Position numbers and translations under genes: made by a program
In this document: positions 34,691 to 37,270 of the stretch, piece by piece
How the letters are laid out: every line of letters begins with the position of its first letter
Numbering within the stretch: the first letter of the stretch is position 1
The notes under the pieces: model-generated
What the model saw: the letters and a program-made list of their open reading frames with translations, nothing else
Told to the model about the DNA's origin: nothing
The model's database searches: none
From: a virus
Lineage: Duplodnaviria; Heunggongvirae; Uroviricota; Caudoviricetes
Length of the DNA stretch: 64,000 nucleotides
Reading direction: 5' to 3' (one strand)
IMG/VR virus record: IMGVR_UViG_2684623127_000006

Positions 34691-37270
34691 TCAGCCTCCT
34701 GCATCCCGCCCACGTTTTGCAGCCAGGGTCCAGGCTGATGAATGAGCTTCTCCGGGTTTATCTTCGGTCATACTGTTGCAGTGCCACAGCGAGCCCCCCC
34801 ACGTCACCGTATCGCCGGGGTGGTAGGTTTCACCGGCTCTGAACACACCGCGGTAGAGCATCACCGGCAGGGAAAATGTTTTTTCCGTACGCTGGCCACT
34901 GCTCTGCCGGACCACCACAGAGAACAACCGCTCACCCGTCATGCTGACGTCAATATCCGCCACCCCGTCAACCAGGCATTCCCATCCCCGCATCCCGTGC
35001 GTTTTTTCATACGCCCGCCAGAGTCCGCCCTGGTGTGTGGCATACGTGCCCCGGGGAAAGGATTTTTGATCGTCAATGGCGGGGAGTATTTCCAGTGCCG
35101 TGGCATCACGCCCGTCCTGCGGAGCCGGCAGGGCACTCACCGCATCCAGAACCGCCTTCTGCAGAACATCCGGATCGTAGTCACGACCATCACGCGGAAC
35201 AGGAATATGGCTTACCGCCTCCTTCACCATCTGTTCAAGCATCGGACGCACATCATCCGGGGTGAGACTTTTACCGTCTGCCGGCTGCGGAATATTTGCG
35301 ACCGCATCATTCACCGCCTTCTGCAGTACTTCCGGATCATAGTCACGACCGTCGCGCGGAACAGGGATATGGCTTACCGCCTCCTTCACCATCTGTTCAA
35401 GCATCGGACGCACATCATCCGGGGTGAGACTTTTACCGTCCGCCGGCTGCGGAATATTTGCGACCGCATCATTCACCGCCTTCTGCAGTACTTCCGGATC
35501 GTAGTCACGACCATCACGCGGAACAGGGATATGGCTTACAGCCTCCTTCACCATCTGTTCAAGCATCGGACGCACATCATCCGGGGTGAGACTTTTACCG
35601 TCCGCCGGCTGCGGAATATTTGCGACCGCATCATTCACCGCCTGCTGCAGTACATCCGGATCATAATCACGACCATCACGCGGTACCGGAATGGCCCCCA
35701 CAGCGTCATCCACCATCGCCTGCAGAACCGGACGCACCTCATCCACCGTCACATGCTTCTGTAATACCACAGACTGAGAAGCCAGTTTTTCTTCAAACGT
35801 TTGTGCCTGCGCGGCTATTTTCTCCTCAAATGTGCGCTGTAAATCCGCCAGCACTGTGGAAAATTCTTCTCCCAGTGCACGAATAATGGACAGTTCCCGT
35901 TCCGTCATTTTCTCAGTATCCCCCCTGAACATCGCTTTCACCGCATCATGCTCTGTTTCACTGATTGCCTTATTACCGTCAGATGCGCCGTCAGGCAGCT
36001 GTGATGAAACTGTTTTCCCGGCAGACGCGAACGGATCCTCACGGGCATCACGACGGGACAGCGCCTCCAGACTGTAGTTCTGCTGCTGAAGATACAGTGC
36101 ATCACCGCCGGCCAGGGGCGGCAGGTTCTCCCGTTTACGGGCCTCATTGGGCGTGAGAAGCGTATTTTTCACCGCATCCCCCAGCGTTTTCATGCGCCGC
36201 TCACTGTCCATTCTCAGCAGCGTGGTGACATCAAATTCTGTACTCTCGTTTTCCCCCGTTTCCAGCGCCTCATCCAGTAACAGTTCAATGGACTCAATCA
36301 GCGTCTGCAGGCACTGGGAATAATACTGCTGCTCCAGCGCCTCCACGTTGTCACTGGAAGGCGGTTGTCCCACGCCAATCTTGTAGGCCGGGACACGGAA
36401 CACCGAACAGACAATTTCAGCGGTCATCTTCAGTTGTTCCACCGTCTGCGCATCCACCGGTGAAAACGTCGTGGGGTTGTATTTTGCCCCGTTGCTCAGA
36501 ATGGCCGTTTTCCCCGCATTTTCGCCTGTATACCCGCTGTCCCAGTTGCTCTTCAGTTTTTTCGCATTTTCTTCCGTAATACTGCCGGGGATCTCAATCA
36601 CCCCGGACGGCCTGCCGCCATTTCTGAAAAAAGACGTCGAATTTTCCTGAATATGATGCCCCTGCGTGGCCGCCAGCCCGGCGGCATACACCGGCGGCAA
36701 TCCTATAAGCGGATGAAAAAAACAGTTAAACCGGTCGTGGATCACTTCCCGGGCAGGCACCGTCACCGCCTCCGTGATCCCGCAGTTCCGGTCCGGCGTG
36801 ATGCGGTAGAACACCTCGCCGTCATCCGCCACCAGAGGTTCAACCCGGCTCCAGTCCAGAATACGCAGTTCTTTGATCTGCCACCGGGCATTACGGATTT
36901 TCAGCACCACCGTATTGCCATGACGCAGTTTGGCGTTCAGCCACAGTTCAAAAAACTGGATGCGGTTCTGCTGGGCGTTGGGACGACGACAGAGGCGGGC
37001 AATATCCCCCCGGCGCGTTTCCCTGCGTATCCCATGCGCATCCGTCTGCATAAGACGCAGCCGCATTTTGGCGATATCCTGGGATATCAGCGAAATACAT
37101 GCAAACACCGCATGAAAGGAGAGGACGGCTTCAGGATCGGCTTTCACGCCCTGCTGCCAGGCGCCGGAAAAGGGCTCAGCCACCGCCTGAAACAGGCTGG
37201 TCCAGCCCGCCTCTCTTACGTCACGTCCTGATTTCTGGTTTTTTCGGGTTCGCCGTAAAAGGTTCCACAT
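34691..37270 (-). CDS. portal protein (HK97 family) with long repetitive C-terminal extension
   Basis: N-terminal ~400 aa portal-like (FFRNGGRPSGVIEIPG…NAGKTAIL); then 3-4 tandem 54-aa repeats. Confidence 0.7.
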   Translation of the reverse strand: MWNLLRRTRKNQKSGRDVREAGWTSLFQAVAEPFSGAWQQGVKADPEAVLSFHAVFACISLISQDIAKMRLRLMQTDAHGIRRETRRGDIARLCRRPNAQQNRIQFFELWLNAKLRHGNTVVLKIRNARWQIKELRILDWSRVEPLVADDGEVFYRITPDRNCGITEAVTVPAREVIHDRFNCFFHPLIGLPPVYAAGLAATQGHHIQENSTSFFRNGGRPSGVIEIPGSITEENAKKLKSNWDSGYTGENAGKTAILSNGAKYNPTTFSPVDAQTVEQLKMTAEIVCSVFRVPAYKIGVGQPPSSDNVEALEQQYYSQCLQTLIESIELLLDEALETGENESTEFDVTTLLRMDSERRMKTLGDAVKNTLLTPNEARKRENLPPLAGGDALYLQQQNYSLEALSRRDAREDPFASAGKTVSSQLPDGASDGNKAISETEHDAVKAMFRGDTEKMTERELSIIRALGEEFSTVLADLQRTFEEKIAAQAQTFEEKLASQSVVLQKHVTVDEVRPVLQAMVDDAVGAIPVPRDGRDYDPDVLQQAVNDAVANIPQPADGKSLTPDDVRPMLEQMVKEAVSHIPVPRDGRDYDPEVLQKAVNDAVANIPQPADGKSLTPDDVRPMLEQMVKEAVSHIPVPRDGRDYDPEVLQKAVNDAVANIPQPADGKSLTPDDVRPMLEQMVKEAVSHIPVPRDGRDYDPDVLQKAVLDAVSALPAPQDGRDATALEILPAIDDQKSFPRGTYATHQGGLWRAYEKTHGMRGWECLVDGVADIDVSMTGERLFSVVVRQSSGQRTEKTFSLPVMLYRGVFRAGETYHPGDTVTWGGSLWHCNSMTEDKPGEAHSSAWTLAAKRGRDAGG
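35139..35760. repeat. 162-bp intragenic tandem repeat (~3.8 copies) within portal gene
   Basis: Unit starts at 35301, 35463, 35625 with a degenerate copy from about 35139. Confidence 0.85.

Follow-up and report, generated by a model that had tools for sequence, protein, structure and literature searches.

Why should the portal gene of a phage run on, beyond its portal domain, through a tandem array of 162-base-pair (bp) repeats and into a second, distinct domain? The question is raised by one open reading frame (ORF) of an E. coli O157:H7 prophage, in a stretch of 64,000 nucleotides (nt) of caudoviricete DNA, IMG/VR virus record IMGVR_UViG_2684623127_000006, referred to here as the window. 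The ORF (34691..37270; all coordinates are those of the window, and all features lie on its minus strand unless stated otherwise) is uninterrupted, encodes 859 amino acids (aa) in the ORF list and has a product identical to WP_001356761.1. Our results make it very likely that this ORF is composed of two genes, an HK97-type portal gene of about 454 aa and the gene behind it, here called X, of about 405 aa (aa 455-859), which have been joined by a change from five to six G residues (G5 to G6) in a single run. The wider statement, that the ORF is such a fusion and that X is an accessory head protein docked on the portal, we regard as probable, with less assurance than the fusion.

The reading frame and its junction

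The front part of the protein matches curated portal profiles almost end to end. An HK97-family portal domain at aa 45-388 (36107..37138) was recognized by NCBIfam TIGR01537, portal_HK97 (E 4e-103, 345 bits against a cut-off of 112, profile positions 2-343 of 343), and at aa 54-382 by Pfam Phage_portal PF04860 (E 9e-80, 268.7 bits against a cut-off of 39.1). A PDB sequence search with the whole protein returned the portals 9lbn (1e-27) and 8cez (424-aa chain, 5e-19) at aa 43-420 and left the extension unmatched. The gene also lies in a head-morphogenesis module, together with genes for terminase, protease, capsid and connector. Behind the domain is an acidic C-terminal tail (aa 389-454, isoelectric point (pI) 4.7; 35909..36106), delimited by comparing the junction with that of phages 1717 and Lys8385Vzw and of Enterobacter, and the last five residues of this tail are altered by the frameshift, reading GDTEK in the window versus GILRK and a stop in the two-gene, or split, form. 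The view of the first-pass annotation that the portal ORF continues through the repeats into a distinct terminal domain is confirmed within the window by the ORF list and by the profiles.

It had also been considered that the repeats might be an assembly artefact. Many database copies do stop short at the end of a contig of about 2 kb and give partial proteins, so short-read assemblies do break here, but an error of assembly or sequencing behind either the repeats or the long ORF is hardly credible. The 2580 nt are present at 100% identity in the closed E. coli O157:H7 genome NZ_CP038416.1, where the product WP_001356761.1 is annotated "phage portal protein"; the Stx phages 2851 and Stx2a_WGPS6, sequenced independently, carry the gene at 99.5% identity with the repeat copy number unchanged; and the copy-number variants found elsewhere differ by exact multiples of 162 bp, with the frame kept open. 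The PHROG profile phrog_2271, which has 859 positions, covers the window protein end to end (positions 1-859). As an object the gene is not new, since it can already be found in databases and in named Stx phages.

How the two parts came together can be read at the junction. The window and phage 2851 have TTCAGGGGGGATACTGAGAAAATGACG, with a run of six G (G6; 35920..35925), and the split phages 1717 and Lys8385Vzw have TTCAGGGGGATACTGCGAAAATGACG, with a run of five (G5). In the G5 frame the portal ends ...AMFRGILRK-TGA and the ATG of X overlaps the stop codon (ATGA), and in the G6 frame the reading goes ...AMFRGDTEK-MTEREL and then on to the end of X. This ATG, which in the window is the codon of Met455 (35906..35908), is the start of X in split alleles and in Enterobacter, and the stand-alone proteins P0061 and P0080 begin MTERELS and MNERELS, respectively. 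BLASTP against Enterobacter divides the protein at the same place, with aa 1-450 matching the portal (68% identity) and aa 455-857 matching X from its residue 1 (51%). The Enterobacter portal ends ...AMLRGLLTK-TGA, like the GILRK-stop of the split form, and for this reason we regard the split state as ancestral. Portal and X are annotated "portal protein (pseudogene)" in the split phages Stx2a_WGPS8, Stx2a_F349 and Stx2a_WGPS4, and the comparison of junctions indicates the reverse polarity, the split form being the ancestral and intact state. The ancestral arrangement is one of two adjacent, translationally coupled genes of the head module, and the extra G moves the portal frame into that of X 20 nt ahead of the old stop.

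The run lies 12-17 nt upstream of the ATG, with 11 nt between them, where Enterobacter has GAGAGGA. This placement makes it very probably the Shine-Dalgarno element of X and, since both element and ATG are kept in the fused allele, free X might still be made from it by way of an internal ribosome-binding site. A different role for the run would be that of a programmed frameshift site, where G5 gives mostly portal and a little fusion and G6 gives mostly fusion and a little normal portal. We hold this to be very unlikely. A +1 slippage on GGG-G into ATA CTG AGA AAA TGA would restore the ancestral portal end, the run is homopolymeric and stands just ahead of the overlap, many G5 alleles have the rare AUA after GGG, and tRNA genes with CAT and TCT anticodons are present in the window. 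However, no slippery sequence is conserved among the relatives with two frames: many E. coli alleles have GGGGGATT, with the common codon ATT, and one has four G (G4), Enterobacter has AGAGGATTG, with no run at all, and X of P. syringae is in a different relative frame. Moreover, the Shine-Dalgarno role alone explains the retention of the run.

Gene X and its repeats

Whether the extension might be a separate gene had been raised at the outset, and the answer depends on the genome. In the window it is one ORF, with X in frame with the portal through the G6 run, but X is a separate gene in Enterobacter, Pseudomonas, phage PAJU2, a Rhizobium phage, Variovorax, Pseudoduganella and the E. coli phages 1717, JLK-2012 and Lys8385Vzw. 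In these last three X has 407, 407 and 245 aa, respectively, and the split portal has 454 aa in 1717 and Lys8385Vzw. Altogether, a separate X gene was found at 43 of 66 E. coli-type loci and in every other genus examined, with the exception of one independent fusion, P0215. The extension had been read as an elaboration of the portal itself; that reading does not hold up, as the extension appears to be the next gene of the head module, attached by one extra G.

A search with aa 441-859 in a set with one representative per 50%-identity cluster returned 5542 proteins at E<=0.001 and 641 at E<=1e-30, mostly of 250-500 aa, so that X defines a large and widespread family of more than 5,000 clusters at 50% identity. 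The window protein belongs to it by homology over the N-terminal helix, the repeats and the C-terminal knob described below. Of ten homologues that were scanned, the stand-alone members lack a portal domain and are assigned to phrog_1289 (331 positions), which the window protein matches at E 3.9e-195 over aa 670-859 and beyond. The gene order around X is also conserved: terminase, S78 protease and capsid (fused or separate), at least one small ORF, a portal of about 455 aa, X of 330-530 aa and Phage_connect_1. The portal-X-connector order was found in 10 lineages, including Enterobacter (L006), P. syringae (L007), phage PAJU2, the Rhizobium phage, Variovorax, Pseudoduganella and the metagenomic contig L094, and in all split cases the start of X overlaps the stop codon of the portal. 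A dependence of X on the protease-capsid fusion was considered and rejected, because protease and capsid are separate in Variovorax, Pseudoduganella and the metagenomic contig L093. In L093, a gene for a 544-aa PKD/Laminin_G_3 protein (4357-5991 of that contig) is inserted between the portal gene and X, with the order otherwise kept; it is of a typical surface-decoration type and sits in a slot that otherwise holds X alone.

The exception, P0215, is a protein of 1237 aa with a portal part 47% identical to that of the window, and it was found as an identical protein on four contigs from at least two samples. By sequence comparison, X has been fused to a portal C-terminus at least twice independently.

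Little of this is visible in current names. The label "portal protein" of phrog_1289 we take to be transferred from fused forms, and NCBI calls stand-alone X either "phage portal protein" or "gp6-like head-tail connector protein" with no portal or connector domain listed. Proteins named in this way (P0270, P0277, P0302, P0304, P0307, P0318, P0313 and P0309) come from Variovorax, Pseudomonas, Acidovorax, Pseudoduganella, Enterobacter and Obesumbacterium, and their names look like annotation carried over from the fused E. coli form. No family for X was found in NCBIfam. Hundreds of E. coli genomes, including records of Stx phages, label the fused ORF "portal", labels that a two-gene view corrects, and we found no literature that describes the long portal as a fusion, the split form as ancestral, a toggle in the G-run or X as a large mislabelled family. 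The main practical value of the present analysis lies in this correction of annotation and in a testable lead on a conserved portal-associated protein.

Structure prediction, which had been proposed as a check on the extension, returned an N-terminal helix, segmented helices and a distinct all-beta terminal domain. The AlphaFold2 model of aa 441-859, built with 47 homologues, has a confident 47-residue helix (query residues 17-63), nine short helices with low-confidence loops between them (pLDDT about 45-65) and a confident all-beta end (pLDDT above 90, and 90 when this end was modelled alone). X is accordingly modelled as an N-terminal region forming one long predicted helix (aa 455-507; 35750..35908; pLDDT 84-89), a stalk of 27-aa units and a conserved beta knob of about 135 residues with a CBM5/12-like module. 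A terminal domain of about 150 aa had been expected; a distinct domain is present, but its size is 137 aa (aa 723-859; 34694..35104). Foldseek with the model of the whole extension gave nothing at E<=0.001, since the low-confidence repeat region dominates the model. When the knob was then modelled alone, the predicted fold superimposed on solved CBM5/12 domains and matched these and phage tail fibres. Pfam CBM_5_12 (PF02839) scores the window protein at 19.1 bits against a cut-off of 26.2, and the homologues P0126 and P0122 at 29.8 and 24.7. Matches among the predicted viral structures of BFVD are collagen-repeat, ChiC_BD, CBM5/12 and tail-fibre proteins, and PDB profile searches gave weak CBM5/12 matches, along with designed helical repeat proteins for the repeat part; these last were rejected as homologues, the likeness being one of composition and periodicity. 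Conservation within X is highest in the knob, with a mean column identity of 57% versus 31% for the whole of X across phages from Escherichia, Pseudomonas, Variovorax and other hosts. X as a whole is strongly acidic, with a net charge of -23 and a pI of 4.8. Many homologues carry a collagen-like GXY tail after the knob, several with 6-8 triplets and P0123 with a weak Pfam Collagen match; the window protein has no Gly-X-Y run and ends ...KRGRDAGG.

The repeat region (aa 508-722; 35105..35749) consists of eight 27-aa units, as judged from the repeat register, the AlphaFold2 model and the alignment of 47 homologues. Each unit is made up of an amphipathic helix, some 15 residues long, and then an (I/L)PxPxDG(R/K) loop, whose prolines and glycines are almost invariant in the alignment columns of the 47 homologues, and two units make up one 54-aa, 162-bp repeat. 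Tandem Repeats Finder reported a period of 162 at 35151-35683 (3.3 copies, 95% matches, 0 indels, score 982) and, in a row with period 324, an array stretching to 35744. An in-register comparison places three near-perfect units at 35692-35531, 35530-35369 and 35368-35207, with 94-97.5% mutual identity, preceded by a diverged half unit (aa 508-526) and followed by a diverged unit (aa 689-722, 55-57% DNA identity). The coordinates and the figure of about 3.8 copies in the first-pass annotation were therefore roughly right, but "near-perfect" applies to about 3.3 copies only. Codon differences between the units are mostly synonymous (18 synonymous versus 4 non-synonymous), which argues that the minus-strand frame is constrained at the protein level. 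A 340-aa ORF on the plus strand (34742-35764) was rejected as a gene, being unannotated in RefSeq and having substitutions that follow the minus-strand frame; it is best read as a by-product of the repeats.

Comparison with relatives indicates that the repeats are a trait of the X family and not of portals. The number of 27-aa units ranges from a few to at least 17 in stand-alone homologues and is about 23 in P0215, where the units are a variant with LPEPEPLPDI loops. At the E. coli-type loci, fixed anchors flanking the array are 49, 103, 157, 211, 265 or 373 aa apart, 211 being both the commonest spacing and that of the window, and E. coli X proteins measure 245, 299, 353, 405/407, 461 or 569 aa, that is, they differ in 54-aa steps, in fused and split alleles alike. 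The expectation that copy number would be unstable is borne out by these lengths at the population level. The 162-bp repeats are recent in-frame duplications of a two-unit block of the stalk, with copy number probably changing by unequal recombination or replication slippage, and each step of 162 bp lengthens or shortens the stalk with the frame intact. The array and the G-run are also break points of short-read assemblies, and both vary among otherwise near-identical prophages.

Alleles of the junction and the place of X

The 66 E. coli-type viral contigs that span the junction, the only kind of locus returned by the viral-contig scan, divide cleanly by the length of the run, with both alleles common: 23 have G6 and all are fused, and 43 have G5 or G4 and all are split. 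The number of in-frame codons upstream is 416-490 with G6 (459 in most, and shorter at cut loci) and 12-16 with G5 or G4. G6 occurs on at least three junction haplotypes, and the haplotype most often seen with the fusion carries G5 at two loci, which means that the change either recurred or was transferred by recombination. A 91-nt G6 junction query had its best match at >=99% identity in 746 complete E. coli genome records, which is a lower-bound proxy inflated by heavily sampled clones; a 90-nt G5 query was useless for counting split alleles, given that one mismatch and one gap share an identity band. The portal extension had been called unusual, which is only partly so, in view of the 746 records.

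It could be argued that the fused allele is a plain frameshift lesion, in which 405 extra residues per subunit damage the portal and which persists in prophages that are defective or helped by paralogues. The split form is ancestral, the tail genes of this prophage are damaged, and paralogous copies are numerous in O157 genomes (a median of five places per genome), where help in trans and gene conversion would be possible. X itself is truncated at 4 of the 23 fused loci, but it is intact at the other 19, and truncation is also seen at about 4 of the 43 split loci. The same allele is present in the deposited genome of the isolated phage 2851 and in Stx2a_WGPS6, it occurs on at least three haplotypes, and P0215 represents an independent portal-X fusion that is identical in separate metagenomes. 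We consider a lesion unlikely on this evidence; the phage 2851 genome, the 746 records and the haplotypes suggest that the fused allele is not dead.

The hypothesis that we prefer for X is that of an accessory head protein docked on the portal and internal when fused, for which we put the chances at close to even. The C-terminus of solved portals lies in the crown and faces the capsid interior; it follows that fused X would be inside the head unless it is cleaved off. Two independent fusions to a portal are evidence of the Rosetta-stone type that X works at the portal, and the start/stop overlap in all split cases, together with P0215, supports this link. X would be made in about the amount of portal and dock on it, and in the fused allele all 12 copies of X would be tethered to the C-terminal end of the portal. 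Candidate roles include organizing or retaining DNA at the portal and procapsid nucleation, among others.

Several observations weigh against this hypothesis. In the identical RefSeq region (L001 21153-25256, window about 24000-28100) the minor tail protein L is truncated and the tip protein J is frameshifted; the prophage is probably defective and need not make particles. The persistence of the fused allele is drawn in part from a record count inflated by clones and in part from phage 2851, which is reportedly infectious, as suggested by the title of Strauch et al. 2008. Searches of the literature and the PDB yielded neither an experiment on X nor a solved structure nor virion proteomics. X also looks like an external fibre, having a CBM5/12-like knob, tail-fibre fold matches and GXY tails in its homologues, and its strong acidity fits poorly with a head filled with DNA. 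Such a build, and the acidity, would be in keeping with an external whisker or with a scaffold-like assembly factor. Literature searches returned nothing on the extension, on PF28083 or on the virion proteomics of an X-bearing phage. The head protein of prophage AH14a is of the Mu F type and differs from X (PMC4936722).

The fibre-like features lead to another explanation, by which X is an external fibre of the neck or head, a carbohydrate-binding whisker, in split phages, and the fusion either misplaces it into the head or is undone by the prohead protease, which frees X. The knob matches CBM5/12 domains and phage tail fibres, the BFVD matches point the same way, the GXY runs that end many homologues imply trimers, stalk length is as widely variable as in surface fibres, and in L093 a PKD/Laminin_G gene lies between the portal gene and X. 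On the other hand, the knob is the most conserved part of X, the opposite of what is normal for receptor-binding tips, and such conservation among phages that infect different hosts speaks against a host-specific receptor binder. For an external fibre, it would also be hard to tolerate two independent fusions to the inward C-terminus of a portal. We judge this explanation to be about as unlikely as a lesion.

A more far-reaching extension of the portal-docked hypothesis would make X the founder of a class of portal-tethered internal head fibres, in which G5 and G6 toggle between free X and X tethered to 12 subunits and the 162-bp array sets the length of the stalk. We give this only an outside chance. 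If it were true, lambdoid prophage populations would gain a heritable and reversible variation on the portal crown, and DNA retention, ejection or capsid capacity could be affected.

The surrounding prophage and known systems

The genes around the fused ORF are those of a head module, and the identical RefSeq region gives their order as TerS, TerL, protease-capsid fusion, small ORF, portal, connector, head closure, gp10-like and gp17. The fusion of S78 protease and major capsid protein (645 aa; 37482..39419), supported by the ORF list, the RefSeq annotation and Pfam matches to S78 and Phage_capsid in L006 and L007, lies upstream and not downstream of the portal gene, as in all relatives examined. 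Between the two is a conserved 73-aa ORF (37216..37437; WP_001063099.1) that overlaps the portal start by 55 nt, and a small ORF is found at the matching position in P. syringae, PAJU2, Variovorax and L094. The head-tail connector, Phage_connect_1 (34362..34688), comes after X in nearly every relative examined. Further on, the ORF of the major tail subunit (261 aa; 32436-33221) has an end that reads as Ig-like (...GTPPYKYAWKKDGQPVDG...KYTCVVTD), which would be an accessory C-terminal module such as phage structural proteins often carry.

A phage-type tRNA cluster with the anticodons CAT, TCG and TCT lies at 48974-49223, of which the CAT gene (49148-49223) is tRNA-Ile in RefSeq. Beside it the identical RefSeq region has TerB, DUF3927 and a SASA esterase, and no stx gene. 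A second cluster of this type, with CAT and TCT, lies at 1052-1304, a sign that the window may start in a further lambdoid prophage.

Comparison with known systems places the two halves of the fused protein in different company. Over residues 45-388 the protein resembles the HK97-family portals 8cez and 9lbn, but the solved portals have 424 and 431 aa and the window ORF carries a further 405 residues of another gene. The knob of X recalls the CBM5/12 chitin-binding modules of Serratia ChiB and Streptomyces ChiC, although the window protein falls below the Pfam cut-off and the aromatic pair typical of these modules is not evident in its sequence. In its general build X is also reminiscent of T4 fibritin and the phi29 head fibre gp8.5, which have short helices, regular loops, a variable number of repeats and a globular C-terminal end. 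Foldseek and PDB profile searches found no sequence or fold match behind this likeness, and both proteins are external, on the neck or capsid, and not at the portal C-terminus. The C-terminal barrel of the P22 portal is a helical prolongation that projects into the capsid. The barrel, however, is native and one continuous coiled-coil helix of about 120 residues, whereas the prolongation in the window appears to be a foreign gene that was fused on, its product segmented into helices of 15 residues and ending in a globular part.

The closest relatives of the extension are the stand-alone X proteins of phrog_1289 (precomputed Pfam label PF28083), such as PAJU2 ORF007, Enterobacter P0313 and P. 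syringae P0280, which share its three-part architecture and its position at 29-51% identity but are separate genes overlapping the portal stop, unlike X of the window, which is in frame with the portal. In genomic position, X also resembles SPP1 gp7 and Mu gpF (PF04233), which are encoded directly downstream of the portal, bind it and are found inside the head. Its architecture of repeats and a beta knob is quite unlike theirs, and the Mu F/gp7 domain was found neither in the window protein (Pfam, PHROGs and NCBIfam) nor in 10 homologues (Pfam and PHROGs). Still, the two fusions argue that X docks on the portal as well, and X may be best regarded as a positional analogue of SPP1 gp7 and Mu gpF that shares no homology with them.

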